Assembly (NCBI GenBank): GCA_035533595.1
Contig: DATLTN010000061.1
Span: 27,116-91,115 of the forward strand
Length of the DNA stretch: 64,000 nt
Direction of reading: 5' to 3'
Origin: Acidimicrobiales bacterium
GTDB lineage: Bacteria; Actinomycetota; Acidimicrobiia; Acidimicrobiales; Bog-793
Under the pieces are notes generated by a model. It was not told the origin of the DNA and did no database searches. It saw nothing but the letters and a program-made list of their open reading frames with translations. Below, piece after piece: positions 4,648 through 53,458 of the stretch; the stretch's first letter is position 1; each line of letters begins with the position of its first letter. Position numbers and translations under genes: made by a program.

Positions 4648-5400
4648 TCAGTGCGAGCGCGCGAGGGAGATGATCGTGAGCGCGTTGAAGGTCGCGTGGG
4701 CGAACATCCCCGCCCCGAGGCGCCCGGTCCGCAGCGCGAGCACGCAGAGCACGCAGCCGAAGCCGGCGAGCGCGAGCAGCTCGATCGGCTGGAAGTGGGC
4801 GAGGCCGAAGAGCGCGCCGGTAACGAGGACCGCGCCGACGGTCCCGGCGCGCCCGCCGCCGAGGCGGCCGAGCGCCGCCCGCAGCACGAGGCCGCGGAAG
4901 AAGAGCTCCTCGACGACCGGCGTGCCGACGCAGACGAGCAGCGCGAGGGCCACGTAGCCGGTGCCGTCGACGTGCTCGGCGAGCTGCTTGGAGGGCGCCG
5001 AGAGGCGCTCGGAGAGGTGGTGGACGAAGGGGGTGAGCGGGAGGGTGAGGGCGGGCACCAGCAGGTAGGCCGAGGCGAGGCCGACGGCGATGCCGAGGGG
5101 GATGTCGCTCGGCCGCAGCGCGAGGCCGTAGTCGGCGTGCAGCCGATCGAGCACGCCCGGGCGCTCGCCGCGGCGGCGCGCCGCCGAGGAGGCGGCGAGG
5201 ACGGCGGCGAGGAGGCCGAGCCACAGGCCGACGAGTCCTCCGACGTCCTCGCCGAGACGGCTCGTGTGGCCGGCGAGGGCGTTCGCCGCGCCGGCGAGGA
5301 GGGAGCCGGCGAGCTCGCCCCCGAGGAAGCCGAAGAGCGCCTCGACGAGCCCGAAGCGGTTGGCGAGGCCGGAGGGGCGCTCGTCTGGGACCTCGGCCAT
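4648..5400 (-). CDS. CPBP (CAAX/Abi) family intramembrane metalloprotease
   Basis: Multi-TM protein with EELFFRG, FGLAHF and HATFN motifs. Confidence 0.85.
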   Translation of the reverse strand: MAEVPDERPSGLANRFGLVEALFGFLGGELAGSLLAGAANALAGHTSRLGEDVGGLVGLWLGLLAAVLAASSAARRRGERPGVLDRLHADYGLALRPSDIPLGIAVGLASAYLLVPALTLPLTPFVHHLSERLSAPSKQLAEHVDGTGYVALALLVCVGTPVVEELFFRGLVLRAALGRLGGGRAGTVGAVLVTGALFGLAHFQPIELLALAGFGCVLCVLALRTGRLGAGMFAHATFNALTIISLARSH

Positions 5401-5511
5401 GCCTGAGCGTCCCCGTTTCGAGGGCTGCGGTCAACTCGGCGGGCCGGGGGCGGCGGGGCCGGGGCGGGCGCGGGGCGCGGGGCGCGCGGCAGCTCCGCGG
5501 GGGGCGGTGCC

Positions 5512-5517
5512 TACGAT
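5512..5517 (+). promoter_or_regulatory. candidate -10 hexamer TACGAT, 6 nt before the ftsH GTG (leaderless geometry)
   Basis: TANNNT hexamer, then N6, then start codon 5524. No Shine-Dalgarno sequence. The same geometry occurs at five other first genes in this window. Confidence 0.3.
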
Positions 5518-5523
5518 GTACTG

Positions 5524-7584
5524 GTGAGTCGACAACCGCAGGATCTGCGCCCCGGCGGCCCCGGCAAGGGCCTCGGAGGGCCCGGCCGCAACAACAACAC
5601 CGGCACGCCGGGCTCGGGCGACGCCACCTGGCGGTGGTTCGCGGCGCTGCTCGCGGTGGTGGTGATCATCGCCCTCTTCTCGACCTCGCTCGCCGGCCAC
5701 TCGAGCGCGACCCACCTCACCTACACCCAGTTCCAGTCCGACCTCGCGCAGAACCAGGTGAAGACGGCGGTGGTCGACAACTCCTCGGGCAACATCACCG
5801 GCGTGCTCGCCGACGGCTCGAACTACACCACGACCGGCCCGCCCCCGAGCGACGCCGAGATCGCCGCGATCCAGAAGTCCAAGGCCACCCTCAGCTTCTC
5901 CTCGCCCTCCTCGAGCATCCTCCCGACGCTCCTTCTCTACCTGCTGCCGGTCGGGATCTTCATCGCCTTCTTCTTGTGGCTGAACCGCCGCGCGCAGGGG
6001 CAGATGTCGGGGATCATGTCGATCGGCCGCAGCCGGGCGAAGGTCTATTCCACCGAGCGGCCGCGCACGACCTTCTCCGACGTCGCCGGCTACAACGGCG
6101 TGAAACAGGAGATCTCCGAGGTCGTCGACTTCTTGAAGTCGCCGGGGCGCTTCCGCGAGATCGGCGCCCGCATCCCGAAGGGCGTGCTGCTCGTCGGCCC
6201 GCCGGGGACGGGCAAGACGCTGCTCGCGCGCGCCGTCGCCGGCGAGGCGGGGGTCCCCTTCCTCTCGGTGAGCGGCTCGGACTTCATGGAGATGTTCGTC
6301 GGCGTCGGCGCGAGCCGGGTGCGCGACCTGTTCCAGACAGCCCGCAAGCAGGCGCCGGCGATCATCTTCGTCGACGAGATCGACTCCATCGGCCGAAAGC
6401 GCGGCGCCGGCCTCGGCGGCGGCCACGACGAGCGCGAGCAGACCCTCAACCAGATGCTGAACGAGATGGACGGCTTCGACCCCGCCGAGGGCGTGGTGAT
6501 GATGGCGGCGACGAACCGCCCCGACATCCTCGATCCCGCGCTGCTCCGCCCCGGGCGCTTCGACCGCCAGATCGTCGTCCCCCTCCCCGACCTCGAGGAG
6601 CGCAAGCCGATCCTGCAGGTGCACTGCCGGGACAAGCGCATTGGCCCCGACGTCGACCTCGAGCTCGTGGCGCGCGGCACGCCCGGGATGTCTGGCGCGG
6701 ACCTCGCGAACCTCGTCAACGAGGCGGCGTTGCACGCCGTGCGGCGCGGCAGCCAGATGGTCGAGATGCGCGACTTCGACGCCGCGCGCGACCGCGTCCT
6801 CATGGGCCAGCAGCGCGACAGCCTCGTCCTCTCCGAGGAGGAGAAGGCGCGCGTCGCCTACCACGAGTCCGGCCACGCCGTCCTCTCCTACGTGCTCCCG
6901 AACGCCGACCCGCTGCTGAAGGTGAGCATCATCCCGACCGGCATGGCGCTCGGCGTCACCCAGCAGCTCCCCCTCGAGGAGCGCCACATCTACCGCCGCG
7001 AGTACATCGAGGACTCGCTCGCGGTGCGCATGGGCGGGCGCGTCGCCGAGCTGCTCGTCTACGGCGACCTCTCGACCGGGGCCAGCGACGACCTGCAGCG
7101 CAATACCGAGCTCGCCCGCAAGATGGTCCGCGAGTGGGGGATGTCGGCGCGCGTCGGCCCGATGGCCTGGGGCCAGCAGGGCACGGTCTTCCTCGGCGAG
7201 GACCTGATGCACACCCGCGACTACTCCGAGGACACGAGCCGCGTCGTCGACGAGGAGGTGGCGACGATCCTGCGCGACCAGGAGGAGCGGGCCCGCCAGG
7301 TCCTCTCCGAGCACCGCTCCGGCCTCGAGGCGGTCGCCCACCAGCTCCTCGAGAAGGAGAGCGTCGACGGCGAGGAGGTCGCCCGCCTGATCGACGAGGC
7401 CTTCGGGCGCCCCGTGCACGACATCGACTCGGCGATCCCGCACTTCGCCCGCGGCATCCGCGATGCGCCCCTCGCGCCGCCGCTCGCCCCCCCGGTCACG
7501 GCCGCCTCAGGGGGCGCGGAGGCTCACGCGAGCGGGATCGCCGCCGAGGAGTTGAAGCCGACCGACCCCTTCCCCCGCGCGTAG
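5524..7584 (+). CDS. ftsH: ATP-dependent zinc metalloprotease FtsH
   Basis: Two N-terminal TM helices, Walker [12 protein letters not shown], Walker B IIFVDEID, zinc site HESGHA; 686 aa with a low-complexity tail. Confidence 0.95.
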
Positions 7585-39760: not shown

Positions 39761-40465
39761 ATGCGCAGATCCCTAGCCACCTCGCTCGCGCTCGGCCTCG
39801 CCGGCGCCCTCTCGCTCTCGGCGCTCCCCGCCGGGGCCTCCGCCCCCACCGCGACCTCGGTGCTCGGCGCGGCGAAGAAGGCGATCGCCGGCGAGTCCGG
39901 GGTGCACATCGTCGTCGCCGCCGTCTCGGGCAAGACCAGCAACAAGGTCGTCGCCGATCTCGGCGCCAAGACCGGGATGGAGTCGGTGACGTCGGGCAAG
40001 GCGCAGGCGACGGTGAAGGTCACCGACAAGGCCGCCTACATCGGGGGCAACTCGACGGGCCTCACCTCGCTGATCGGCCTCACCGCCGCGCAGGTGAAGA
40101 AGGTCGGCAAGCTCTGGATCTCGGTGAAGTCCGGCACCAGCGAGTACACCCAGCTGAAGACCGAGACGACGATCGCCGCCGTCGCCAGCATCCTCCCGAA
40201 CGCGACCGGCACGGCGCTCACGACCGGTCAGGCCGGGACGAGCCCGCTCTACATCTTGAAGTGGACCGTCGCCGCCACCTCGACCGCGCCGAAGCTCTCC
40301 GACACCGTGAAGCTGCAGGCCAAGGGGGCCACCCTCCCCGTCGAGGAGGACGAGACCGACTCCGCCGGCTCCGGCTCGACGAAGTTCACCAAGTGGGGCG
40401 AGCACGTCTCGATCAGCCCGCCAGCCACCGCCTCGACGATCGATATCTCCAAGGTCACCGGCTGA
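39761..40465 (+). CDS. secreted protein of unknown function
   Basis: Signal peptide MRRSLATSLALGLAGALSLSALPAGASA with an AxA site. A Lys/Thr/Ala-rich beta-type mature part follows. No lipobox Cys. High GC3. Confidence 0.6.
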   Translation: MRRSLATSLALGLAGALSLSALPAGASAPTATSVLGAAKKAIAGESGVHIVVAAVSGKTSNKVVADLGAKTGMESVTSGKAQATVKVTDKAAYIGGNSTGLTSLIGLTAAQVKKVGKLWISVKSGTSEYTQLKTETTIAAVASILPNATGTALTTGQAGTSPLYILKWTVAATSTAPKLSDTVKLQAKGATLPVEEDETDSAGSGSTKFTKWGEHVSISPPATASTIDISKVTG

Positions 40466-40553: not shown

Positions 40554-41213
40554 ATGGCGACGTCGCTCGATGGCTTCCACTTCGGCTCGACCTTCCGGCT
40601 GCTCGCCTGGGAGGACCCCGTCGGCGAGGTCGCCGGCGTCGATCCCCGCTCGAGCTACGTGACCCGCTACTGGCTCCCCTTCCTCGGCCCCTCGACGACC
40701 CTCCTCCTCGGCCTGCTCGCGGCGCGCCTCGACGCCTTGCCCGCGGGCTGTGAGCCCGAGGTCGCCGAGCTCGCCTTCGCGCTCGGCCTCGGCCAGCACC
40801 CCGGACGCCACGGGCCGCTGCTGCGTGCCGTCGCCCGCGCCGTCGACTTCCGCCTCGCCGCGGTGCGCGGCGCGGGCACCCTCGCCGTGCGCCGCCACCT
40901 CCCGCCACTGCCGGCACGCCTCGCGGCGCGTCTCCCCGAGGGTCTCGCCGCGGAGCACGCCGCGCTCCTCTCCTCGAAGAGCCCGGCGCTCCCCCTCGAC
41001 GCGCTCGCCCGGCGCGGCCGCCAGCTCGCCCTCAGCCTCCTCGAGCTCGGCGAGAGCGCGGACGAGGCCGAGCGCCAGCTGCTGCGCTGGCGCTTCCCGC
41101 CGCCGCTCGCCCGCCACTGCGCCCGATGGGCGGCGGCACAGCGCGCCGGCGCGGACGATCCCGCGGGCCTCGCGGCGGTGCTCGTCTCGAAGCCCACGGG
41201 GACGGGTCGCTGA
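40554..41213 (+). CDS. hypothetical cytoplasmic protein (219 aa)
   Basis: GAAGGAGGA SD 5 nt upstream. Leu/Ala/Arg-rich, helical-looking, with an RYWLPFLGPSTTLLLGLL segment. I cannot name a motif. Confidence 0.5.
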   Translation: MATSLDGFHFGSTFRLLAWEDPVGEVAGVDPRSSYVTRYWLPFLGPSTTLLLGLLAARLDALPAGCEPEVAELAFALGLGQHPGRHGPLLRAVARAVDFRLAAVRGAGTLAVRRHLPPLPARLAARLPEGLAAEHAALLSSKSPALPLDALARRGRQLALSLLELGESADEAERQLLRWRFPPPLARHCARWAAAQRAGADDPAGLAAVLVSKPTGTGR

Positions 41214-41233
41214 CCGAGCCCCGCGACGCGCAA

Positions 41234-41272
41234 CTGCCGACGGAACGGACAGATCGTCCGCTCCGTCGGCAG
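41234..41272. terminator. 39-nt near-perfect hairpin between convergent genes
   Basis: CTGCCGACGGA-A-CGGAC-AGATC-GTCCG-C-TCCGTCGGCAG: 11 bp, then 5 bp, with a 5-nt loop. No clear U-tract. Confidence 0.55.
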
Positions 41273-41306
41273 CGACACAGCTACCTCTTCGTGTCCTCCC
41301 GCTGAC

Positions 41307-43718
41307 CTACCGCACCGCGGCCGGGAAGACGGCCACCTTCGCGCCCTGGATGCGGGCGACGACGCTCATCCGGTAGTAGGTGAACGAGCCGCTGTTCGCA
41401 AAGCTCGTGACGCCCGCCGGCGTGAGACGGAAGGCGACGCGGCCATTCTTCCCGGCACCGAGCGACACCTTGGCGGTGGCGAGCGCCACGTGACGGACGA
41501 CCATGTGCTTGCCGACCATGTGGTTACGGGCCACCGTCAGCGCCGCCGTGCCCTGGCAGAGGACGCCGGCCCGGCAACTGAACATCATCGTCACCTGCTT
41601 GGGCGACTTGATCTTGCCCACGGTCCGCACGAGGCCGGCCCTGGGCGTCGCGGCGATGACGAAGGCGGGGTCGTAGCTGAAGGGGATGGTGGTCATGCCG
41701 GAGTGGGTCGCAGTGGCGTTCAGGTGCAGGCCCGTGGGGACGACCTGGTAGATGGAGTCGCCACGGTGGATCGTCTTGTCGAGCACCACCAGTCTGATCG
41801 GCTTGCTCGCGGGCGGCGAGGTGCCGGACGGCGTGACCCACGAGATCGCGAAGCCGAGCTCGTAGCCCTTACCCTTGGGCAGTTCACTGGCGAGCGTCGT
41901 GCTGACGAGGATCGGATAGAGGCTGACGACCGTGCCCGGCGGCAATGCGCCGGGGGGAATCGTGAGGGTCGCCGAACCGTTGGAGTCGGTCGCCTTCAGC
42001 GTGGTCGCGAGACCGGCGACCACGGTGCCGGTCGTCGGCGTGCCGACAGACGAAGCGCTGATACCAACGGGGAGGGGCGCGCTGCCCGCCACAACGGCGA
42101 GCGAGAGCGCCGCGGTCGCCGACTGTGCCGGCGGTCCGTTGTCAGAGACCTTGAAGGTCACCGGCGAGGCGCCGACCGCGGTCGGCGTCCCGGAGATCAC
42201 CCCTGCCGAGCTCAAGCTGAGACCAGCGGGGAGTGACCCTGAGCTGACCGAGTAGCTGAAGTTGCCCGAACCGCCCGAAGTGGCGAGCGAGGAGGAATAG
42301 CTCACGCCGGTGGTCGCGGCCGGAAGGCTCGAGGTCGTGAGGGCGAGCTGTGCGAGAGAGGTGAACGCCAACGGCAGCGTCTTGATCGGCGTGCTGGTGT
42401 CGTTGTACTCACCGGCGGCCGTGCAGACTCCCGAGACGGGACAGGAAATTGCCGCCGGTGAGGAGAACTCGCTCATGGCGACCGTGGTCGCGTTCGCCGG
42501 CGCCACGAGCGCAGTGGGGGTAGCGAAGGTACCGGAGGTCTCCGTCGCCATCATCGAGGCTCCGTCAAAGGTGGCGTCGAGGGTGTAGCCCCCGACCGCG
42601 GTGCAGTTCCCTGGGCTCGTGCAGCTGACGCCGTTCATCGTGGCGGCCTGATCGCCGGGGATGCTCACGGCATTGGACGGAAGGCCGAGCTGCACCGACG
42701 GCGCGAAGGTCCCCGAGCTCTGCGTCGACGTCAGCGGCTCGAAATCGCCCGCCGCGTCGGTGAAGAAGCCAACGGCGGTGCAGTTACCGGCGCTCGGGCA
42801 ACTGACCCCCGTGAAGTTGGCGGTCCGCTGGCTCGAGGGAGCGGCGGAGGGAGGCGCCACGAGCGCAGCGGCGCCGAAGGAGCCGCCGTTTTGCGTGGCG
42901 ACCATCAGCGACAGGGTGCTGGCGGTGTCCGCGTAGTTACCGACCGCTGTGCAGTTGCCTGCGCTGGTGCAGCTGATGGAGTGGAGGGTGCCGGTGGGGT
43001 TCGTCGAAGTCGACGCGGGGCTGGCGACCTCGACGGCGGTCGACCAGCCGCCCGAGGTCTCGTTGAGCGACATCGCCTGCTGGTTCGAAGGAGCGATGGC
43101 GTAGTCACCGACAGCGGTGCAGTTGCCGACACTCGAGCAGCTGACCGCGTCAAGCTCGGCGAACTGCTGGCCGACAGTGGCGAATGCGTTGGCGGGGAGG
43201 GAGGCCTCGACGGCTGTCGCGGCGGTCCCGTTCGCGATGGTGACCGCCATCGTCTGCTCAGAACCCGTGGAATCGGTGTAGTTGCCGACTGCGGAGCAGT
43301 TGCCGACGCTCGAGCAGCTGACGCCGTTGAGCGAGGCGGTCTGGGCTCTGGCGGTCGCCATTGCGTTGCCGGGGAGGGCGACCTCGACGGCGGTGGCGAA
43401 GGTACCGCCTGTCTCGGCGACGGCCAAGCCCTGCTGGTTATTGGCGGTGTCGGTGTACTGGCCGACCGCCACGCAGTTCCCGACCGAAGCACAGCTGATG
43501 TTGCTGAAGAAAGCGCTGGGCGAGGAGGTGTTGGCGTTCGCCGGCAGTTGCAGCGTGACGCCCGTGTTGAAGACGGCCGTCGCCGCGGAGGCCGCGAGCG
43601 GTGCCACCACGAGGGAAGTACCGACGAGGGCCCCGAGGCCAGCGACGACACCGAGGGCCCGCAGGCGCAGTCGCGCATGGCCACGGCCGCTTTCAGGCGC
43701 GGGGCGCGAACGACTCAA
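41307..43718 (-). CDS. secreted repeat protein: seven Cys-x5-Cys repeats, one He_PIG-type Ig domain and an unknown C-terminal domain
   Basis: ORF 41307..43814. Start placed at TTG 43718 because the upstream codons are A/T3-rich. Signal-like [30 protein letters not shown]. Repeats are built on [VI]SCxSxGNCxAVGxY. Ig motif: [21 protein letters not shown]. Confidence 0.75.
42400..43510 (-). repeat. seven tandem coding repeats, period 168-180 nt
   Basis: Repeat cores (…GTAGTTNCCGACNGCNGTGCAGTTGCC… on the + strand) lie near 42405, 42585, 42763, 42933, 43101, 43278 and 43455. Confidence 0.7.
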
Positions 43719-44011
43719 ATAGAAAAAGCGATGCAAGTTGACTCCCAATGCAAAGAGGGCGACGACGCCACACCAATTGTCGGAGCGCAACGCAATTCGC
43801 TTGTTCCAAAGCAAGTATAGCGGGTTTCATTACGATTTCCAGTAGCGCTTCGTTCGATCTAGAGCGGCGACCTCTTTCCGCAAAGTCGTGGCCCGTGAAT
43901 TTCCGATCGCGCAGCCAGAGCGATACAGCCGCTCACTCGCGAGAGGTGCTGCAGCGAACACGCCGGTTTCGACGAAGAGCGGAGGTGTCCAGCCCGGCTG
44001 AGGTGGACCGG

Positions 44012-44017
44012 TAACGT
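44012..44017 (+). promoter_or_regulatory. candidate -10 TAACGT, 6 nt before the metH GTG (leaderless geometry)
   Basis: TANNNT-N6-GTG(44024), no SD. Confidence 0.3.
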
Positions 44018-44023
44018 GCCGAG

Positions 44024-47000
44024 GTGCACGATTACCTCTCCCTGCTCGGTGAGCGCGTCCTCATCTACGACGGCGCGACCGGCACCAACCTGCAGCTGCG
44101 CGAGCTCTCGGCCGACGACTTCGGAGGGCCGTCGCTCGAGGGCTGCAACGAGCACCTCGTCCTCACCCGCCCCGACGTCGTGCAGGACATCCACCGCTCC
44201 TTCCTCGAGGTCGGCGTCGACGCGGTGAAGACGAACTCCTTCGGCGCGTTCTCGGTGGTGCTCGCCGACTACGGCATCGCCGACCAGGCGCACACCCTGG
44301 CGCGACGCTCCGCCGAGCTCGCCCGCGAGGTCGCCGACGGCTACACGACCCCGGACCGCCCCCGCTTCGTCGCCGGCGCGATCGGCCCCGGGACCAAGTT
44401 CCCGACGCTCGGCCAGATCCCCTTCGCGGCGCTCCGCGACGCGTACCAGGAGGAGGCCGACGGCCTCCTCGAAGGGGGCGTCGACCTGCTGCTCATCGAG
44501 ACGAGCTTCGACCTGCTCTCCGCGAAGGCGGCGATCATCGGGGCCCGCCGAGCGATGCGCAACGTCGGCCGTGAGGTCCCCCTGCAGGTACAGGTGACGA
44601 TCGAGCTCACCGGGCGGATGCTGCCGGGCACCGAGATCGCCGCCGCCCTCTGCGCCCTCGAGGCGATGCGCCCCGACGTCATCGGCCTCAACTGCGCGAC
44701 CGGCCCCGCAGAGATGTACGAGCCGCTCCGCCACCTCACGGCGCACTCCCGGATCCCCATCTCCGCGCAGCCGAACGCGGGTCTGCCGAGTGTGCGTGAG
44801 GGCAAGATGCACTACGACCTCACCCCCGACGAGCTCGCCGAGCACCTCTTCACCTTCGCCGGCGAGCTCGGCGTCTCGGTGGTCGGCGGCTGCTGCGGCA
44901 CGACCCCGGCGCACATGCGCGCCGTCGTCGAGCGCTGCGGCGGCCTCGCCTCGCCTTCCCGCCCGGTCGTGCACGAGGCGGGCGCGACCTCGCTCTACAG
45001 CTTCGTCCCCTTCGCCCAGGAGACCTCCTTCCTCGTCGTCGGGGAGCGGACCAACGCGAACGGCTCGCTGCGCTTTCGCGAGGCGATGCTCGCCGGTGAC
45101 TTCGACACCACGACGGCGATGGCCCGCGACCAGGTGAAGGAGGGCGCGCACGTCATCGACGTGTGCGTCGACTACACCGGCGCGGACGGCCTGGCGAACA
45201 TCGGCGAGGTCGTCTCCCGCCTCGCGACGCAGTGCTCGGTGCCGGTGATGATCGACTCCACCGAGTCCGACGTGGTGCGCACCGCCCTCGAGTGGCTCGG
45301 CGGGCGGAGCATCCTCAACTCGGTCAACCTCGAGGACGGCGACGCGCCGGGCACCCGCCTCGACGCCTTCCTCTCCCTCGCCGCGGAGCACGGAGCGGCG
45401 GTCGTCTGCACCTGCATCGACGAGGAGGGCCAGGCGCGCACCGCGGACTGGAAGGTGCGGGCCGCGAGGGCGATCCACGACCTCGCCGTCGGCCGCTACG
45501 GCCTCTCCCCCGAGGACCTCTTCTTCGACCCGCTCGCGCTGCCGCTCTCGACGGGGATGGAGGAGAGCCGCCGCGACGGGATCGAGACCATCGAGGCGAT
45601 CGGGCGCATCAAGGCCGAGCTGCCCGGGGTGCACACCGTCCTCGGCCTCTCGAACGTCTCCTTCGGCCTCTCGGCCGCCACCCGCCAGGTCCTCAACTCG
45701 GTCTTCCTGCACGAGTGCGTGCAGGCGGGGCTCGACGCGGCGATCGTGCACGCGGCGCGCATCCTGCCGCTGCACCGCATCGACGAGCAGGCCCGCGAGC
45801 TCTGCCTCGACCTCATCTACGACCGGCGACGCGAGGGCTACGACCCGCTCTCCTCGCTGATCGAGCACTTCTCCGGCGCGAGCCACTCCTCGGCGGCCGC
45901 CGAGGACCGCAGCGGCTGGCCGGTCGAGCAGCGCCTCTCGCGGCGCATCGTCGACGGCGACCGCGTCGGGCTGGAGGACGACCTCGACGAGGCGCTGGCC
46001 GCGGGGACCGCGGCGCTCGACATCGTGAACGACACGCTCCTCGTCGGGATGAAGGAGGTCGGCGAGCTCTTCGCCTCGGGAGAGATGCAGCTCCCCTTCG
46101 TCCTCCAGTCCGCGGAGACGATGAAGGCCGCCGTCACCCACCTCGAGCCGCACATGGAGCGCAGCGAGAGCGGGGGACGCGGGCGGGTCGTCCTCGCCAC
46201 GGTGAAGGGCGACGTGCACGACATCGGCAAGAACCTCGTCGACATCATCCTCACCAACAACGGCTACGAGGTGCACAACCTCGGCATCAAGGTGCCGATC
46301 AGCGACATGCTGCAGCGCGCCGAGGAGGTCGCCGCCGACGCGATCGGGATGAGCGGGCTGCTCGTGAAGTCGACGCTCATCATGCGCGAGAACCTCGAGG
46401 AGATGAACCGCCGCGGCGTCGACAAGCTGCCCGTGCTCCTCGGCGGTGCCGCCCTCACCCGCAGCTACGTCGAGCGCGACCTGCGCGCGGTCTACAAGGG
46501 GCGCCTCTTCTACGGGCGCGACGCCTTCGAGGGGCTGCGGGTCCTCGAGCGGCTGATGGAGCTGCGCGACCAGGGGGTCGAGGACCCCGACTTCGGGCGC
46601 GCCCCGGGCGGGCGGGTGCTGCCGCCCCGAAAGAGCCAGCGCCCCCGCCCCGAGGACGCCGCGCCGGTGCGCTCGACGAGCGTCGCTACCGACAACCCGC
46701 TCTTCGTGCCCCCCTTCACCGGGACGCGGGTGGCGAAGGGGATCCCCCTCGACGACATCACCGACTACCTGAACGAGACGGCGCTGTTCCGCAACCAGTG
46801 GGGCTACCGCCCCGAGGCCGACGAGAACGACGCCGACTTCAAGGCGCGAGTGCGCGCCGAGCTGCGCGCCCGCCTCGACGCGGCGAAGGCCGACGACGTC
46901 CTCGTCCCCCAGGTGGTGTGGGGCTACTTCCCCGCCAACTCCGACGGCAACGACCTCATCATCTGGTCCGACGTCGACCGCACCGCCGAGCTGCTGCGCT

Positions 47001-47485
47001 TCAGCCTCCCTCGCCAGGCGGTCGAGCCGAACCTGTGCATCGCCGACTTCTTCCGCCCGATCACCGACGAGGTCACCGACGTCGCCGCCTTCTTCCTCGC
47101 GACGATGGGGCACAAGGCGAGCGAGCGGGCCCGCGAGCTCTTCGCCGCCGACCGCTACCTCGACTACGTCGGGCTGCACGGCCTCTCGGTGGAGATGACC
47201 GAGGGCCTCGCCGAGCTCTGGCACCACCGCATCCGCGAGGAGCTCGGCTACGCCTCCGAGGACGGCCCCTCGCTCAGCGGGCTGTTCCGCCAGAAGTACC
47301 GCGGCGGGCGCTACTCCTTCGGCTACCCGGCCTGCCCGAGCCTCGAGGACAACGCGAAGGTCGTCGAGCTGCTACGCGCCGAGCGGATCGGCGTGACGGT
47401 CTCGGAGGGCTTCCAGCTCGAGCCCGAGCAGACCACCCTCGCGATCGTCTGCCACCACCCCCAGGCGAAGTACTTCGTCGTCTGA
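44024..47485 (+). CDS. metH: cobalamin-dependent methionine synthase
   Basis: 1153 aa. Hcy-binding domain (LIYDGATGTNL), pterin-binding domain, B12-binding DxHxxG (GDVHDIGKN) and the AdoMet reactivation domain. Confidence 0.95.
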   Translation: MHDYLSLLGERVLIYDGATGTNLQLRELSADDFGGPSLEGCNEHLVLTRPDVVQDIHRSFLEVGVDAVKTNSFGAFSVVLADYGIADQAHTLARRSAELAREVADGYTTPDRPRFVAGAIGPGTKFPTLGQIPFAALRDAYQEEADGLLEGGVDLLLIETSFDLLSAKAAIIGARRAMRNVGREVPLQVQVTIELTGRMLPGTEIAAALCALEAMRPDVIGLNCATGPAEMYEPLRHLTAHSRIPISAQPNAGLPSVREGKMHYDLTPDELAEHLFTFAGELGVSVVGGCCGTTPAHMRAVVERCGGLASPSRPVVHEAGATSLYSFVPFAQETSFLVVGERTNANGSLRFREAMLAGDFDTTTAMARDQVKEGAHVIDVCVDYTGADGLANIGEVVSRLATQCSVPVMIDSTESDVVRTALEWLGGRSILNSVNLEDGDAPGTRLDAFLSLAAEHGAAVVCTCIDEEGQARTADWKVRAARAIHDLAVGRYGLSPEDLFFDPLALPLSTGMEESRRDGIETIEAIGRIKAELPGVHTVLGLSNVSFGLSAATRQVLNSVFLHECVQAGLDAAIVHAARILPLHRIDEQARELCLDLIYDRRREGYDPLSSLIEHFSGASHSSAAAEDRSGWPVEQRLSRRIVDGDRVGLEDDLDEALAAGTAALDIVNDTLLVGMKEVGELFASGEMQLPFVLQSAETMKAAVTHLEPHMERSESGGRGRVVLATVKGDVHDIGKNLVDIILTNNGYEVHNLGIKVPISDMLQRAEEVAADAIGMSGLLVKSTLIMRENLEEMNRRGVDKLPVLLGGAALTRSYVERDLRAVYKGRLFYGRDAFEGLRVLERLMELRDQGVEDPDFGRAPGGRVLPPRKSQRPRPEDAAPVRSTSVATDNPLFVPPFTGTRVAKGIPLDDITDYLNETALFRNQWGYRPEADENDADFKARVRAELRARLDAAKADDVLVPQVVWGYFPANSDGNDLIIWSDVDRTAELLRFSLPRQAVEPNLCIADFFRPITDEVTDVAAFFLATMGHKASERARELFAADRYLDYVGLHGLSVEMTEGLAELWHHRIREELGYASEDGPSLSGLFRQKYRGGRYSFGYPACPSLEDNAKVVELLRAERIGVTVSEGFQLEPEQTTLAIVCHHPQAKYFVV

Positions 47486-47544
47486 CAGCCCGGCGCTGCC
47501 CCGGAGCGGTGGCCGCGGCGGGTGCCGTGGGGCGGGGCGGACGG

Positions 47545-47550
47545 TAGGTT
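47545..47550 (+). promoter_or_regulatory. candidate -10 TAGGTT, 6 nt before the ATG of the thioredoxin-TPR gene (leaderless geometry)
   Basis: TANNNT-N6-ATG(47557), no SD. Confidence 0.3.
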
Positions 47551-47556
47551 GGCGGC

Positions 47557-48267
47557 ATGCCGACTGACGTGACCGACGCCTCCTTCGAGCACGACGTCCT
47601 CGACGTCTCGGCGACCCGCCCGGTCGTCGTCGACCTCTGGGCGCCCTGGTGCGGGCCCTGCCTCTCGCTCGGCCCGATCATCGAGAAGGTGGTCGACGAG
47701 ACCGAGGGCGCGGTCGAGCTCGTGAAGGTGAACATCGACGAGAACCCGCAGGTCGCCGCCGCCTTCCAGGTGCAGTCGATCCCGGCCGTCTTCGCGATCA
47801 AGGACCGCAACGTGGTCGACGCCTTCGTCGGCGCGCTCGGTGAGGCCGCCGTCCGCGAGTTCGTCGGCCGCCTCGTCGAGGCCCCGAGCGAGGCGGACCA
47901 GCTGAGCGCAGCCGGCGACGAGGCCTCGCTGCGCAGAGCCCTCGAGCTCGAGCCCGACCACGGCCAGGCCCTCCTCGCCCTCGCCGAGCTGCTCTCCGAG
48001 CGGGGCGAGCACGAGGAGGTGCTGACGCTTCTGCAACGCCTCCCCGAGTCGCCCGAGAGCCGCCACCTCGCCGCCAAGGCGCGCCTCGCGGCCGAGGGCG
48101 GCGCACCCTCCGGCGACGGCGTGGAGGCGCGTCTCGACGCCCTCCTCGAGCGCGTGAAGGACGACGACGCGGCCCGCCAGGAGTTCCTCGACCACCTCGA
48201 GGCGATGGACCCCGAGGACCCCCGACGGGCGCGCTACCGGCGCGCCCTGTCCTCCAAGCTCTTCTGA
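47557..48267 (+). CDS. thioredoxin-domain protein with a C-terminal TPR-like domain (YbbN/CnoX-like architecture)
   Basis: N-terminal thioredoxin fold with an intact WCGPC motif. C-terminal helical repeats. Confidence 0.85.
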   Translation: MPTDVTDASFEHDVLDVSATRPVVVDLWAPWCGPCLSLGPIIEKVVDETEGAVELVKVNIDENPQVAAAFQVQSIPAVFAIKDRNVVDAFVGALGEAAVREFVGRLVEAPSEADQLSAAGDEASLRRALELEPDHGQALLALAELLSERGEHEEVLTLLQRLPESPESRHLAAKARLAAEGGAPSGDGVEARLDALLERVKDDDAARQEFLDHLEAMDPEDPRRARYRRALSSKLF

Positions 48268-48269
48268 GC

Positions 48270-49133
48270 GTGCGGCTCCCGCCGCTCGCCCTCGGCCGGC
48301 CGCTCCCGCTGCGCCTCGGGGCGCGTCACTACGACCTCTCGGCGCGCGCGCTCGTGATGGGGATCGTGAACCGCACCCCCGACTCGTTCTACGACCACGG
48401 CCGCTACTTCGCCCTCGACGACTCGCTGCGCCTCGCCGAGGAGCTGGTCGGCGCCGGCGCCGACCTCATCGACGTCGGCGGCGTGCGCGCCGGGCCGGGG
48501 CCGGAGGTGACCCCCCAGGAGGAGATCGACCGCGTCCTCCCGGCGATCGAGGCGATCGTCGAGCGCTTCGACCTCCCCGTCTCGGTGGACACCTTCCGCG
48601 CCGGGGTCGCGGAGGCCGCCTACAAGGCGGGGGCGGTGCTCGGCAACGACATCAGCGGCCTCGCCGACCCGGAGTACCTGCCCGTCGCCGAGCGCTACGG
48701 TGCGAGCGTCGTCGCGACCCACATCCGCATCGGCCCGCGCATCGACGACCCCGACCCCCGCTACCCCGACGACGACGTGGTCGGCGCCGTCGAGGCCTTC
48801 CTCTCCGAGCGCCTGGCGCGGGCGCGCGCCGCCGGCCTCGCGGACGACCGCGTCATCCTCGACGCCGGCCTCGACCTCGGAAAGACCACCCCGCAGTCGC
48901 TCGCCCTGCTGCGCGCCTCGGCGCGCCTCGCGGCCCTCGGCCCACCGCTCCTGCTCTCCGCGTCCAACAAGGGCTTCCTCGGCGAGCTCCTCGACCTCGC
49001 GATCGACGAGCGGCGCGAGGCGACGATGGCCGCGCTCGCCCTCGGGATCACCCTCGGCTGCCGGGTGCTGCGGGTGCACGACGTCACCGGAGCGCTGCGC
49101 GTCACGCGCACCCTCGAACGGCTCGTCGGCTGA
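48270..49133 (+). CDS. folP: dihydropteroate synthase family protein (divergent, FolP2-like)
   Basis: GIVNRTPDSFYD, SVDTF, NDISG, DAGLDLGK. The canonical GGESTRPG loop reads GGVRAGPG. Confidence 0.8.
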   Translation: MRLPPLALGRPLPLRLGARHYDLSARALVMGIVNRTPDSFYDHGRYFALDDSLRLAEELVGAGADLIDVGGVRAGPGPEVTPQEEIDRVLPAIEAIVERFDLPVSVDTFRAGVAEAAYKAGAVLGNDISGLADPEYLPVAERYGASVVATHIRIGPRIDDPDPRYPDDDVVGAVEAFLSERLARARAAGLADDRVILDAGLDLGKTTPQSLALLRASARLAALGPPLLLSASNKGFLGELLDLAIDERREATMAALALGITLGCRVLRVHDVTGALRVTRTLERLVG

Positions 49134-50179
49134 TGGCCGAGAGCCACCTGCGCGCCGACGGCACCCCCGAGCGCGCCTACCTGCTCGCCGGCGAGGACGA
49201 GGGCCTCGTCTCCCAGCAGCTCGTCGCGCTCGTCGAGGAGCTCGCCGCGATCGAGGCGCTGCCTGGCGCGATCGAGGAGTACGAGGCGCCGTCGGCCGAC
49301 GACGGCGTCGCGCTCGGCGCGGTGCTCGACGCGTGCCGGACGCCACCGTTCCTCGCCGACCGCCGGGTGATCGTGGTGCGCGAGACGAACCTCGACGCCG
49401 CCGGCCAGAAGGAGCTCCTCGCCTACCTCGCCGACCCCCTCGAGACGACGGTCCTCGTCTTCGCCCTCCTCGGGAAGAAGGCGACGGCCACGCTGCAGAA
49501 GGCCTTCGCCGCGGCCGGCCGGGTGCTCGCCGTCGCCCCCGCGAGCGGCGCACGGGGTCGCCAGCAGTGGTTCAGCGAGCACCTCGCGGGCGCCCCCGTG
49601 CGCCTCGACAACCAGGCGGTCGTCGCCCTCGACCGCCACCTGGGGGGCGACCTCGCGCGCCTCGCGCCGCTCCTCGAGTCGCTCGCCGCGGCCTACGGGG
49701 AGCACGCGCACGTGAGCGTCGAGGAGCTCGAGCCCTTCCTCGGGAGCGCCGGCGAGTCGACGCCCTGGGACCTCACCGACGCGATCGCCGAGGGGGATGC
49801 GGGCCGCGCCCTCGAGGTGCTCGGGCGCCAGTTCGGGGCCGGCCGCCACCCGATGCAGCTGCTCGCATCGCTGCACCGCCACTACGGGGCGCTGCTCCGC
49901 CTCGACGGCGCCGAGATCCACGACGAGGCGGCCGCCGCGTCGGCGACCGGGCTCGCCCCCTACCCCGCCCGCAAGGCCCTCGAGCAGTCGGGGCGCCTCG
50001 GCCACGAGCGGGTGGCGCGGGCGATCGGCCTGATCGCCGGGGCCGACCTCGACCTTCGCGGCCGCGTCGACTGGCCCGACGAGCTCGTGATCGAGGTGCT
50101 CGTCGCCCGCCTCGCGCAGCTCTCGCGCCTCGGCCGTCCCGCGCCGCGGGGGCGCCCGGCGCGCACCGGCCGCCGGTGA
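49133..50179 (+). CDS. holA: DNA polymerase III subunit delta
   Basis: 348 aa. YLLAGEDEGLV N-terminus and a helical C-terminal domain, as in HolA. The ATG overlaps the folP stop by 1 nt. Confidence 0.72.
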   Translation: MAESHLRADGTPERAYLLAGEDEGLVSQQLVALVEELAAIEALPGAIEEYEAPSADDGVALGAVLDACRTPPFLADRRVIVVRETNLDAAGQKELLAYLADPLETTVLVFALLGKKATATLQKAFAAAGRVLAVAPASGARGRQQWFSEHLAGAPVRLDNQAVVALDRHLGGDLARLAPLLESLAAAYGEHAHVSVEELEPFLGSAGESTPWDLTDAIAEGDAGRALEVLGRQFGAGRHPMQLLASLHRHYGALLRLDGAEIHDEAAAASATGLAPYPARKALEQSGRLGHERVARAIGLIAGADLDLRGRVDWPDELVIEVLVARLAQLSRLGRPAPRGRPARTGRR

Positions 50180-51000
50180 GCGAGGGCGTCGACCTCCACC
50201 TCCTCCTCGAGTTCGCCGGGGAGACGGCGCAGCGCGCCGGCGAGCTCCTCCTCGAGGGGCTCTCCGAGCGCGGCGCGAGCGAGCGCCTCGCGGCGGCGGC
50301 CACCAAGAGCTCGCCCACCGACCTCGTCACCGAGCTCGACCGGGCGAGCGAGGCGCTGATCGTGAAGGCGCTGCGCACCCGCCGCCCCGAGGACGGCCTG
50401 CTCGGCGAGGAGGGGACGAGCCGCGCCGGCAGCTCGGGCCTCACGTGGGTGATCGACCCCCTCGACGGCACGACGAACTTCGTCTACGGCTACGGCAGCT
50501 TCGCCGTCTCGATCGCCCTCGTCGACGCCGGCGGCCCGCTCCTCGGCGTCGTCCACGACCCGCTGCGGGGGGAGACCTTCAGCGCGGCGCGCGGCCTCGG
50601 CGCCCACCTCGACGGCCGCCGCCTCGCGGCACCGGCGGCGAGCGGCCCGCTCTCCGAGGCGCTCCTCGGGACGGGCTTCGGCTACGACACCGAGCTGCGC
50701 GTCGCGCAGGCGCGGCTGTTGCCGACGGTCCTCGGCGCGGTGCGCGACCTGCGCCGCGGCGGCTCGGCGGCGCTCGACCTCTGCAGCGTCGCGAGCGGCC
50801 GCCTCGACGGCTACTTCGAGGCCGGCCTCGCGCCCTGGGACCGCGCCGCGGGCGAGCTCGTCGTCACCGAGGCGGGCGGCGTCGTCCTCGAGGTCTCGGG
50901 GCCGCACGCCGGCCGCACGACCCTCGTCGCCTCTCCCCCCGACCGCCTCGAGGCACTCCTCGCCCTCCTCGCCTCGGCGGCCGAGGGCGCGACCCGCTGA
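50176..51000 (+). CDS. inositol monophosphatase family protein
   Basis: Last 274 aa of ORF 48700..51000. GEEG, WVIDPLDGTTNF and WDRAAG motifs. GTG 50176 overlaps the holA stop (GTGA). Confidence 0.88.
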   Translation: MSEGVDLHLLLEFAGETAQRAGELLLEGLSERGASERLAAAATKSSPTDLVTELDRASEALIVKALRTRRPEDGLLGEEGTSRAGSSGLTWVIDPLDGTTNFVYGYGSFAVSIALVDAGGPLLGVVHDPLRGETFSAARGLGAHLDGRRLAAPAASGPLSEALLGTGFGYDTELRVAQARLLPTVLGAVRDLRRGGSAALDLCSVASGRLDGYFEAGLAPWDRAAGELVVTEAGGVVLEVSGPHAGRTTLVASPPDRLEALLALLASAAEGATR

Positions 51001-51142
51001 TCCCCGGCTCCCGGGCGGCACCGCTTTACACTCGACCCGGCGCCGCCCTGGCCATTAGGGTGCGCTGCTCGAATTCTCGAGACTCCTCGACCCCATCTGC
51101 GCAACGGTCAATGGGGACCGACACGAAGGGAGCAGTAAACCG

Positions 51143-53458
51143 ATGACCAACCTCCTTGCTAGTGAAGGCGGCTACCAGGCCTTCACGCTGGGGTCGGCCG
51201 AGAAGGATTGGCTGTACTTCGCGCTCGCGACGGGCTTCCTCGCCCTCGTCGTCGCCCTCGGGCTGATGCGCAACGTGCTCTCGGCGGGCACCGGCACGCC
51301 GCTCATGCGCGAGATCGCGGCGGCGATCCAGGAGGGCGCGGAGGCCTTCTTGAAGCGCCAGTTCCGCGTCATCGGCATCATCGTGGTGCCGCTCGCCGTG
51401 CTCGTCTTCCTCACCGCGACCAAGGTCGTCGAGCCGAACGGCGTGCTCGCGCTGAGCTTCGGCCAGTCCGGCCTCTACCGCGCGATCGCCTTCCTCGTCG
51501 GCGCGACCTTCTCGGGGGCGACGGGGATCATCGGCATGAGCCTCTCGGTGCGCGGCAACGTGCGCACCGCGGCGGCCGCCCTCGGCGGCGAGCTCGCCCC
51601 CGCGCTGCGCGTCGCCTTCCGCACCGGCGGCGTGACGGGGATGTTCTGCGTCGGCCTCGGCATGATCGGCGCCTCGAGCTTCACCCTCATCTTCCAGAAC
51701 TCCGCGAGCGCCGTGCTCGTCGGCTTCGGCTTCGGCGGCTCGCTGATCGCGCTGTTCATGCGTGTCGGCGGCGGCATCTTCACCAAGGCGGCCGACGTCG
51801 GCGCTGACCTCGTCGGCAAGGTCGAGGCGGGCATCCCCGAGGACGACCCCCGCAACGCGGCGACGATCGCCGACAACGTCGGCGACAACGTCGGCGACTG
51901 TGCGGGGATGGCGGCGGACCTGTTCGAGTCGTACGCGATCATGATCGTCGCCTCGCTGATCCTCGGCTACGCGGCCTTCAAGTCGATCCACCTCAACCCC
52001 GCGAAGGGCGTGCTCTTCCCGCTCATCATCGCCGGCTTCGGGATCATCGCCTCGATCATCGCGATCTTCTCGGTGCGCGGCCGCAAGTCCGACAAGACCG
52101 CGATGACGGCGATCAACCGCGGCTACCGCGTCGCCGGCCTCTCGACGATCGTCGCCGCGTTCCTCGTCGCCGAGTTCTACGTGAAGGACCTCGTCGTCTT
52201 CTGGGCGGTGCTCACCGGCGTCGTCCTCGGCCAGGTGGCCTCGCTCATCACCGAGTACTTCACCTCGACCGACCGCCCCCCCGTGCAGGAGATCGCCGAG
52301 GCGGCGCGCACCGGCCCCGCGACGACGGTCCTCGCGGGCATCGCGATCGGCCTCGAGTCCTCGGTGTGGGCGATCCTCTCCATCGCCGTCGCGATCGCGG
52401 TCGCCGTCGCGATCTCCTTCGGCGCGGCGCACGGCAACATCGAGCTCACCCTCTACCTCGTCGCGCTGATCGGCATGGGCCTGCTCGCGACCACCGGGAT
52501 GGTGGTCTCCGAGGACAGCTTCGGCCCGGTCTCGGACAACTCGGCGGGCATCGCCGAGATGGCCGGCGAGTTCGGCGGCGAGGCCGAGCGGGTGATGGTC
52601 AGCCTCGACGCCGTCGGCAACACCACCAAGGCGATCACCAAGGGCGTCGCCATCGCCTCGGCGGTGATCGCCACGGTCGCGCTCTTCGCCTCGTTCATCG
52701 AGACGATCGGCAACCAGCTCGGCCTGGCTTCGGGCAACTCGCTCTTCCACGACGCGGCCACCCAGATCAACGTCGCCAACCCGATCACCTTCATCGGCGC
52801 GCTGATCGGCGGCTCGATCGCCTTCCTCTTCTCGGGCCTCGCGATCCGCGCCGTCGGCCGCTCGGCGGGGACGGTCGTCGAGGAGGTGCGCCGCCAGTTC
52901 CGGGAGCACCCCGGGATCATGGACCGCACCGAGAAGCCGGAGTACGGACGGGTGATCGACATCTGCACCAAGGCCGCTCAGCGCGAGCTCGCCACCCCGG
53001 CGCTGCTCGCGGTGCTCTCGCCGGTGATCGTCGGCTTCGGGATCAACTACTTCGCCCTCGGCGCCTTCCTCGTCGCGGCGATCCTCACCGGCCAGCTGAT
53101 GGCGAACTTCCTCTCGAACTCGGGCGGCGCCTGGGACAACGCGAAGAAGTACATCGAGGACGGCCACGAGGGCGGCAAGGGCTCCGAGGCGCACAAGGCG
53201 GCGGTCATCGGCGACACCGTCGGCGACCCCTTCAAGGACACCGCCGGCCCGGCGCTGAACCCGCTCATCAAGGTGATGAACCTCGTCTCGCTGCTCATCC
53301 TGCCGGCGGTGATCACCACCCACTACCACCCCTGGGAGCGCTTCCCGATCGCCATCGCGGCGCTCGTGGTGCTCCTCTTCTTCATCGCCTTCTCCAAGCG
53401 CAAGTCGCCCGGCATCGAGGCCGCGAGCAACGAGCGCCCGGTCGGCAGCACGCTCTGA
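51143..53458 (+). CDS. hppA: membrane-bound proton-translocating pyrophosphatase (K+-independent signature)
   Basis: [58 protein letters not shown] carries the Lys/Thr pair of K+-independent enzymes. Confidence 0.95.

Follow-up and report, generated by a model that had tools for sequence, protein, structure and literature searches.

A predicted seven-bladed propeller protein with paired cysteines from an uncultured Acidimicrobiales bacterium, and its uncatalogued repeat family

The closest described systems to the protein reported here are beta-propellers. CylK's C-terminal domain is a seven-bladed propeller of four-stranded blades, and the top face of a propeller is made up of the inter-blade loops together with the loops linking internal strands (PMC8916777). 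The PLL, PHL and CV39L lectins of Photorhabdus and Chromobacterium build seven blades from one motif, each interface between blades can hold one sugar site, and these proteins exemplify a multivalent binding propeller; in PHL, the disulfide is a single inter-subunit bridge (Cys279) (PMC5584973). We analyzed a 64,000-nucleotide (nt) stretch of DNA (hereafter, the window) from an uncultured soil bacterium of the order Acidimicrobiales, in which a gene on the minus strand (41307..43718) encodes an 803-amino acid (aa) protein with seven tandem repeats, each carrying one C-x5-C cysteine pair. Structure prediction supports a closed seven-bladed propeller for the repeat region, and the repeat defines a large family that is absent from the family catalogs that we searched. 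Unless stated otherwise, the features below lie on the minus strand, apart from the intergenic spacer and the hairpin, which are given without a strand.

Repeat architecture and predicted fold

The protein has exactly 16 cysteines, all of which fall in eight C-x5-C pairs: seven within the repeats (aa 76/82, 135/141, 194/200, 250/256, 307/313, 366/372, and 426/432) and one, CRAGVLC, at aa 715/721. Successive pairs in the repeats are spaced by 59, 59, 56, 57, 59, and 60 aa, corresponding to 177–180, 168, or 171 nt. An earlier inspection of the nucleotide sequence (hereafter, the sequence-only reading) had described seven C-x5-C repeats of 56–60 aa with a DNA period of 168–180 nt and a last pair reading CPVSGVC, all of which we recovered, although the 'cores' that it listed sit 20–40 nt 3' of the Cys codons. 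Using a hidden Markov model (HMM) of the repeat derived from other proteins, all seven units scored far beyond chance: blade repeat 1 (aa 69–127, 43338..43514, CASVGNC at 76–82; E 5.8e-23), blade repeat 2 (aa 128–186, 43161..43337, CSSVGNC at 135–141; E 5.2e-21), blade repeat 3 (aa 187–242, 42993..43160, CSSVGNC at 194–200; E 2.1e-20), blade repeat 4 (aa 243–299, 42822..42992, CTSAGNC at 250–256; E 1.8e-17), blade repeat 5 (aa 300–358, 42645..42821, CPSAGNC at 307–313; E 3.8e-19), blade repeat 6 (aa 359–418, 42465..42644, CTSPGNC at 366–372; E 1.5e-15), and blade repeat 7 (aa 419–456, 42351..42464, CPVSGVC at 426–432; E 5.3e-06), which ends after strand C. No further copy was found in the window with the same HMM.

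Pairwise identity among the seven repeats is 26–53% (mean 38%). A tandem repeat at the DNA level was considered and rejected, given that Tandem Repeats Finder returned only an 18-nt, 2-copy unit. Because the units are diverged and invisible to this program, we regard them as old. The 18-nt unit itself (43280–43317; 2.1 copies, 85% match) lies in blade 2 over the Cys-pair codons and is the only DNA-level repeat of the gene.

The AlphaFold2 (AF2) model of aa 46–460, built from a 72-sequence alignment, has a mean predicted local distance difference test (pLDDT) of 90.5 and a predicted template modeling score (pTM) of 0.91. Strand assignment with DSSP shows three long strands and one short or broken strand per 56–60-aa unit, seven times over. 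The N-terminal 'velcro' segment of the mature protein (aa 46–68, 23 residues, 43515..43583) includes a 17-residue stretch that matches the strand D and LPANA part of the repeat (consensus GtWatGvEAxLPANA), and repeat 7 stops after strand C; together, these features are the signature, at the level of sequence, of a ring that would be closed by strand exchange. Blade 7, the site of the putative exchange, is modeled with lower confidence than the other blades (pLDDT 56–91).

A Foldseek comparison of the model to the PDB returned 195 matches at E<=1e-3, every one of them a beta-propeller. Five CylK entries came first (E 3e-13; query-based TM-score [TMq] 0.68–0.71 over about 450 columns), followed by the seven-bladed Ycf48, the seven-bladed CV39L, PLL, and PHL lectins, and sialidases; identity to every structural match is 8–14%. 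The AF2 scores and the TMq of 0.71 to the seven-bladed CylK domain support a closed seven-bladed propeller at aa 46–460, with closure read from the scores of the model and of the superposition. The seven-bladed propeller proposed in the sequence-only reading is therefore borne out by both AF2 and Foldseek, and a closed ring is what the prediction gave.

Likeness to these proteins is restricted to the fold. The CylK C-terminal domain (PDB 7ROO and 7FH6; E 3e-13, TMq 0.71) is the best structural match and has seven four-stranded blades, as does the model; however, identity is only 12–13% and the sequence searches gave no sign of a relationship. CylK works inside the cell as a biosynthetic enzyme, has a Ca-binding domain at its N-terminus and Ca sites that bridge its blades, and lacks the C-x5-C pairs, signal peptide, and Ig stalk. 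The PLL, PHL, and CV39L lectins match the model at E 6e-8 to 5e-5 (TMq mostly 0.48–0.56, and 0.33 for PLL3 6t96) with 10–12% identity, no common motif, and no match among PDB sequences. These lectins are single-domain proteins of Gram-negative insect pathogens, whereas the protein studied here is multi-domain and has one Cys pair per blade, unlike the inter-subunit bridge of PHL.

The Asp-box (BNR) propellers (bacterial sialidases, Ycf48, and GH74) have a like fold (E 2e-8 to 1e-5) and share with the query family a conserved motif in the turn from strand C to strand D, ahead of a Trp (E-T-S-G-T-W in the query family). The Asp-box reads S-x-D-x-G-x-T-W and places Gly at the third residue before Trp, compared to the second in the present motif, in which Glu also replaces Asp; an Asp-box identity was rejected on this motif spacing, and no match to the BNR family of Pfam was found. 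Sialidase propellers are six-bladed.

An uncatalogued family and its cysteine pairs

To describe the family, an exhaustive phmmer search with aa 46–460 was run against 1.84 billion representatives. This search gave 12,899 clusters (50% identity) at E<=1e-3, 7,446 at <=1e-10, and 1,981 at <=1e-30, and a word-indexed protein search gave at least 2,762 matches. Nearly all of the relatives come from uncultured Actinomycetota. When GTDB species genomes were scanned with a 6-sequence alignment, 223 loci were confirmed, whereas a scan of genome contigs with the single query protein found no relative. The best 80 of the 223 loci are all from metagenome-assembled genomes and, except for one labeled Acidobacteriota, from Actinomycetota, including Solirubrobacterales, Acidimicrobiales, Gaiellaceae, Conexibacteraceae, Streptosporangiaceae, and Nocardiopsaceae. 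The top identity to the query protein in these genomes is only 47–48%.

No propeller family of Pfam or NCBIfam (WD40, Kelch, NHL, BNR, SBBP, PD40, FG-GAP, PQQ, and others) matched at its curated threshold or even at E<=10, regardless of whether the query, a single repeat, a 4x consensus repeat, or 72 family members were searched. PDB sequences gave 0 matches with either the single protein or a 72-sequence profile, and literature searches found no description of the family. Database names of the relatives are 'hypothetical protein' or refer to fused domains only. The sequence-only reading could not assign the protein to a family; this holds for the catalogs, in that neither Pfam, NCBIfam, nor PDB sequences link the repeat to a characterized family of known function, but the protein is no orphan, having relatives in 12,899 clusters. 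Matches to Fer4_7, CBM_48, LT-IIB, crAss_AuxCP, DUF1176, and AfsA inside the repeat were rejected as spurious, all being below threshold save one partial CBM_48 match in P0098 (34.7 vs 22.4 bits, 39/83 profile positions). The precomputed CBM_48, LT-IIB, crAss_AuxCP, DUF1176, and AfsA labels carried by P0098, P0006, P0052, and other relatives likewise look like false annotations that arise from the uncatalogued repeat.

Repeat numbers in 238 proteins are quantized (8 repeats, n=95; 9, n=41; 16, n=28; 7, n=23; 14–15, n=24), as closed single or double rings predict, and the 9-repeat proteins probably have 8 repeats plus an N-terminal partial unit. By these counts, the family is mainly eight-bladed and the query a seven-bladed variant, so that seven is not the usual blade number of the family. 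Many relatives have near-identical blades. In P0005, which has 16 blades, the C-terminal 440 aa contain three copies of a Cys-containing repeat of about 140 aa (with RICDTR, NQCNG, and FLTVWP in that order) that has no Pfam match and may be another uncatalogued actinobacterial surface module. The fold and the architectural logic of the family are known; what is new is a sequence family with a distinctive C-x5-C pair in each blade.

The modal repeat unit is 56 aa long. Across the 2,364 repeats of the 238 proteins, both cysteines are present in 2,301, a single Cys in 1, and an alignment gap at a Cys column in 62. The columns with the lowest entropy are both Cys, G18, G12, Y20, S7, A16, G37, W39, and P48, and those with the highest are consensus positions 2, 4, 19, 21, 26–27, and 52–56. 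According to AF2 and DSSP, the pair lies where strand A ends and strand B begins, and the S-x-G-N turn that it brackets has a Gly conserved at 94% and an Asn at 73%. Only 9 residues are inserted between the two cysteines in the 2,364 repeats and the C–D turn is almost free of insertions, whereas insertions pile up in the B–C loop (about 700 residues) and the D–A linker (1,207 residues). From canonical topology, we infer that the Cys-stapled A–B hairpins encircle the axis at the bottom face and that the variable B–C and D–A loops form the top face, where propellers usually bind their ligands. The confinement of variation to these loops makes the top face the probable ligand-binding surface.

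Even numbers of cysteines in exported actinobacterial proteins usually mean disulfides. The near-invariance of the pair, its position at the junction of strands A and B, the even and fully paired Cys count, and the apparent export of the protein favor the view that the C-x5-C pairs are most likely structural disulfides, formed after export. It is very improbable that they are instead metal or redox sites (Zn, Fe, Cu, or a thiol switch). This alternative would draw on the sub-threshold Fer4_7 matches (E 0.0041–0.36) and on the seven or eight Cys pairs that, from topology, are expected to cluster round the central axis. The Fer4_7 matches, however, are below the cut-off (18 vs 27 bits) and cover only the CxxxxxC string, the repeat consensus has no conserved His or further Cys ligands, and the protein is apparently exported.

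Export, C-terminal domains, and possible role

The N-terminus resembles a Sec-type signal peptide (aa 1–45, 43584..43718), recognized by inspection from an Arg-rich n-region (5 Arg in aa 1–20), a hydrophobic core (21 aa, within hydrophobic aa 21–42), and the cleavage motif ASA|AT at aa 43–47. Homologue P0071 has the same signal-peptide layout and the same mature N-terminus (...SPATAVF). The n-region (ARLRLRAL) has no adjacent Arg pair and lacks the Tat motif (S/T-R-R-x-F-L-K), and there is no lipobox with Cys at +1, the first Cys being aa 76 inside blade 1. These features point to an exported protein.

The propeller is followed by a He_PIG (PF05345) putative Ig domain at aa 461–536 (42111..42338; E 1.1e-9, 39 vs 24 bits, profile positions 5–91/96), a middle all-beta domain at aa 545–695 (41634..42086), and a C-terminal beta-sandwich at aa 696–803 (41310..41633). 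The middle domain has about ten strands (pLDDT mostly 61–90), matches no family, and is shared, among the proteins recovered, only with P0095 (E 8.1e-28). In the C-terminal domain, CRAGVLC (41556–41576) brackets a strand–strand loop. Many family members have a weakly related domain at the C-terminus, and the Cys pair of the query aligns with C-x4/7-C in those of several relatives. The signal-like N-terminus, the single He_PIG domain (here above the gathering score), and the additional C-x5-C pair near the C-terminus had all been picked out in the sequence-only reading, and each of them stands. The only PDB match of note for the C-terminal half is to the ankyrin ZU5-ZU5-UPA tandem, and it is weak (E 2.5e-4, TMq 0.36), so the domains are called unassigned beta-sandwiches. 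A word-indexed search with the C-terminal 262 aa (41310–42095) returned nothing, not even the identical P0001, which is probably due to a candidate-selection limit for low-complexity, Ala/Ser/Thr-rich queries.

Charge is divided sharply between the two ends of the protein. The propeller has an isoelectric point (pI) of 4.05 (3 K+R, 22 D+E) and the C-terminal domain one of 11.9 (16 K+R, 0 D+E). Among relatives, P0085 (LPTTG) and P0095 (LAFTG) have a sorting signal ahead of a membrane segment and a basic tail, PASTA domains occur in 11/72 family members, and others carry Ig-like domains. P0095 shares with the query the order of propeller, He_PIG, and middle domain; in contrast to such sortase- and PASTA-bearing wall proteins of Actinomycetota, the query ends in the basic beta-sandwich. 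The charge split, together with the sortase and PASTA anchors of relatives, suggests that the basic C-terminal domain may tether the protein non-covalently to the anionic envelope. Many-copy He_PIG surface proteins were also recovered through the He_PIG domain of the query, but this domain covers only 76/803 residues and is uninformative about the propeller.

Taking these features together, we propose an exported multi-domain envelope or extracellular protein. After removal of the 45-aa Sec signal peptide, aa 46–456 would fold into a closed seven-bladed propeller in which each blade is one 56–60-aa repeat with strands A–D and the last blade takes its strand D from the N-terminus of the mature protein. 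The C-x5-C pair would bracket the tight turn between inner strands A and B, and a disulfide formed after export would staple each hairpin, so that a ring of seven staples would encircle the central axis on the side away from the variable loops. The B–C and D–A loops of the top face would be the probable ligand-binding surface. The acidic propeller would stand on a two-domain stalk made up of the He_PIG Ig-like domain and the middle beta domain, and the basic beta-sandwich, stapled by its own C-x5-C, would hold the protein non-covalently on the anionic envelope, where relatives use sortase signals or PASTA domains. We give about an even chance to this reading as a whole, i.e., an exported protein with a stapled propeller, a variable binding face, an Ig-like stalk, and a basic tether. 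A glycan or other polymer is a plausible putative ligand, because conserved positions recur in every blade, as in the PLL and PHL lectins, and the surface lectin or adhesin of the sequence-only reading is a candidate function.

Several observations weigh against this reading. The assignment of function derives from architecture, with no characterized homologue, and the housekeeping neighbors of the gene (metH and genes for a thioredoxin-TPR protein, an H+-pyrophosphatase, an S9 peptidase, a luciferase-like oxidoreductase, and an MDMPI-family protein) give no functional hint. The model of the C-terminal half is of moderate quality (pLDDT 73.6, 6 aligned sequences). No sortase signal (LPXTG or LAXTG with a hydrophobic segment and a basic tail) was found at the C-terminus of the query, which also has neither PASTA domain nor lipobox, and the protein may be released into the medium. 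In the G-T-W motif, the Trp of the family is Phe in most query blades. With respect to the staples, the plain two-residue turn given by the DSSP label would put Cys i and i+6 on opposite sides of the hairpin, and only a three-residue Gly-bulge turn would allow a direct disulfide across the strands; the conserved Gly and Asn are consistent with such a turn and are no proof of it.

An enzymatic propeller (a lyase, alkyl-transferase, sialidase-like hydrolase, or cofactor-dependent dehydrogenase) in place of a binding module is quite unlikely. CylK, sialidases, paraoxonase, GH74, and a PL25 lyase are among the best structural matches, and the usual blade number of eight in the family would also suit this possibility, given that eight-bladed propellers include PQQ dehydrogenases. 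However, identity to the structural matches is only 8–14% (see above), no enzyme family matches by sequence, and the strongly conserved positions recur in all blades, as structural or multivalent sites would and a single asymmetric active site would not. The near-identical blades of many relatives argue in the same direction, as do the fusion partners, which are Ig-like, PASTA, and sortase-signal modules, none of them catalytic.

We also consider it unlikely that the protein is a purely structural, S-layer-like envelope component, or a decoy or shield, that has no specific ligand and whose loops vary by antigenic or phage-driven diversification. Half of its residues (50%) are Ala, Ser, Thr, or Gly, and an acidic head with a basic tail would suit envelope coating. 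In predicted viral structures, the matches to the model are propeller heads of collagen-like and phage structural proteins, which share the fold, and in other genomes the family genes lie in variable regions near transposase, toxin–antitoxin, TIR, and Fic genes. Codon usage speaks against a very highly expressed coat protein, being less adapted than that of the neighbors (GC content at third codon positions [GC3] of 0.878 vs 0.966 expected); moreover, the gene is single copy in 64 kb and no self-assembly feature was identified.

Gene boundaries and genomic context

The maximal open reading frame (ORF) on the minus strand spans 41307..43814. Within it, the 803-aa ORF of the sequence-only reading holds with a TTG start at 43718 and a TAG stop (41307–41309), and GC by codon position in this frame is 0.58/0.61/0.88; an identical gene is present in ENA contigs L082 and L083. 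A Shine–Dalgarno-like element with its own TTG (43734..43746), read from the sequence, lies 6 codons upstream of TTG 43718. It consists of GGGAG (43746–43742), a 5-nt spacer, and TTG (43736–43734), and would give an 809-aa protein with the signal peptide unchanged. Having the better ribosome-binding geometry, TTG 43736 is likely the true start. The public gene calls (L082, L083 5284–7587) give 767 aa from a GTG at Val37, which cuts off the signal peptide. A sigma-70-like match in the spacer shared with metH (TGGAAA-16-TATACT, 43814..43841; 1 site vs 0.1 expected in shuffles) is a consensus match only. Since its -10 element overlaps the TTG that lies furthest upstream, an 835-aa reading is disfavored.

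The monocistronic gene diverges from metH and converges with orf219. The intergenic spacer common to the gene and metH (43719..44023) was described earlier as an A/T-rich 305-bp region, and its GC content is indeed 57% vs 73.7% for the window; an Rfam search of 38–48 kb gave no match, and no riboswitch or other RNA was found in the spacer. At the other end, 30 nt past the gene and between it and orf219, lies the strong hairpin of the sequence-only reading, GC-rich, with an 18-bp core stem (41233–41273) in an extended helix (41228..41278). The 98-nt region folds at -51 kcal/mol (z -3.4). It has no T tract, and a terminator scan found no canonical terminator at the gene end; the hairpin is likely a bidirectional terminator without a T tract.

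The GC content of the gene is 0.688, compared to 0.69–0.78 in 18 neighbors, and its GC3 is 0.878, compared to 0.906–0.989 in the same genes and to an amino acid-corrected expectation of 0.966. The sequence-only reading had attributed the low GC partly to a Ser/Thr/Asn-rich composition. The low GC was confirmed, but the deficit is not just compositional: since the expectation is corrected for amino acids, the GC3 deficit is synonymous and goes beyond the Ser/Thr/Asn effect. Two neighboring genes were also recorded. The convergent orf219 (40554–41213, plus strand) has no Pfam match and is found directly upstream of metH in other Acidimicrobiales. A gene at 39761–40465 (plus strand) encodes a 234-aa, Ala/Ser/Thr-rich protein that matches nothing in Pfam and whose N-terminus resembles a signal peptide; its GC1 is 0.56, like that of the target, whereas its GC3 is normal (0.974).

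Comparison of ENA assemblies shows that the locus is variable on one side of metH. An identical locus is present in two assemblies (L082 and L083), and a tblastn search found the target in same-species contigs only. The gene order metH, thioredoxin-TPR, pterin-binding protein, DNA pol III delta, inositol monophosphatase, and H+-pyrophosphatase (44024–53458 of the window, plus strand) is conserved in L078–L083, whereas everything upstream of metH differs in the relatives with a 78–87% identical MetH. In L079 (MetH 85% identical) and L081 (78%), an orf219 homologue (53% and 50% identity; E 1e-68 and 4e-57, respectively) abuts metH with no gene between them, which marks orf219 as a metH-linked gene. 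In L078 and L080 (MetH 87% identical), a two-component system occupies the site. Because orf219 directly adjoins metH in relatives, the gene is thus a lineage-specific insertion or has undergone repeated loss at an unstable site. The accessory character that the sequence-only reading had seen in the gene is in line with these results, in that its GC3 is below that of all 18 neighbors and it is absent from the same site in relatives.

A credible, if doubtful, alternative is that the relatives examined have lost a gene that was ancestrally present at this site, the lower GC3 of the gene reflecting weak expression and not foreign origin. The region upstream of metH differs from relative to relative (the two-component system in L078 and L080, orf219 adjacent in L079 and L081), which points to a site that is generally unstable; no mobility gene was seen at the borders, where no aimed search for a transposase, integrase, tRNA, or flanking repeat was made; and two ordinary neighbors are also lowish in GC3 (0.906 and 0.914). 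On the other hand, orf219 abuts metH in two relatives at different distances (MetH 85% and 78%), and the closest genome match to the protein is only 47–48% identical.

No conserved gene neighborhood was found in three family members or in the window. As in the window, other family members lie in variable regions. In L086, a 735-aa gene (4681–6888, plus strand) with no Pfam match is located immediately upstream of P0072, by a transposase and a PemK toxin, and may be a paralogue or partner of P0072.

The family comprises about 13,000 clusters and combines a confident propeller prediction with a near-invariant Cys pair, yet it went unrecognized by Pfam, NCBIfam, PDB, and literature searches. A family definition would annotate thousands of 'hypothetical proteins' and would offer structural biologists a naturally hyper-stapled propeller scaffold. 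A broader proposal, which we consider rather unlikely, is that these proteins are a major uncatalogued class of cell-surface recognition modules in Actinomycetota of soil and freshwater that have yet to be cultured (Acidimicrobiia, Thermoleophilia, and some Actinomycetes). Such modules would have 7–8 blades, with a pore ringed by 7–8 disulfide-stapled hairpins and an opposite face that diversifies rapidly, and would serve as multivalent lectins, or as receptors that recognize environmental polymers, neighboring cells, or phages. If this is true, the disulfide ring might render binding or stability sensitive to redox conditions. Among soil Actinomycetota, Acidimicrobiia and Thermoleophilia are abundant but largely uncultured, their surface biology is almost unknown, and a ligand, if found, would point to how these bacteria recognize their surroundings.

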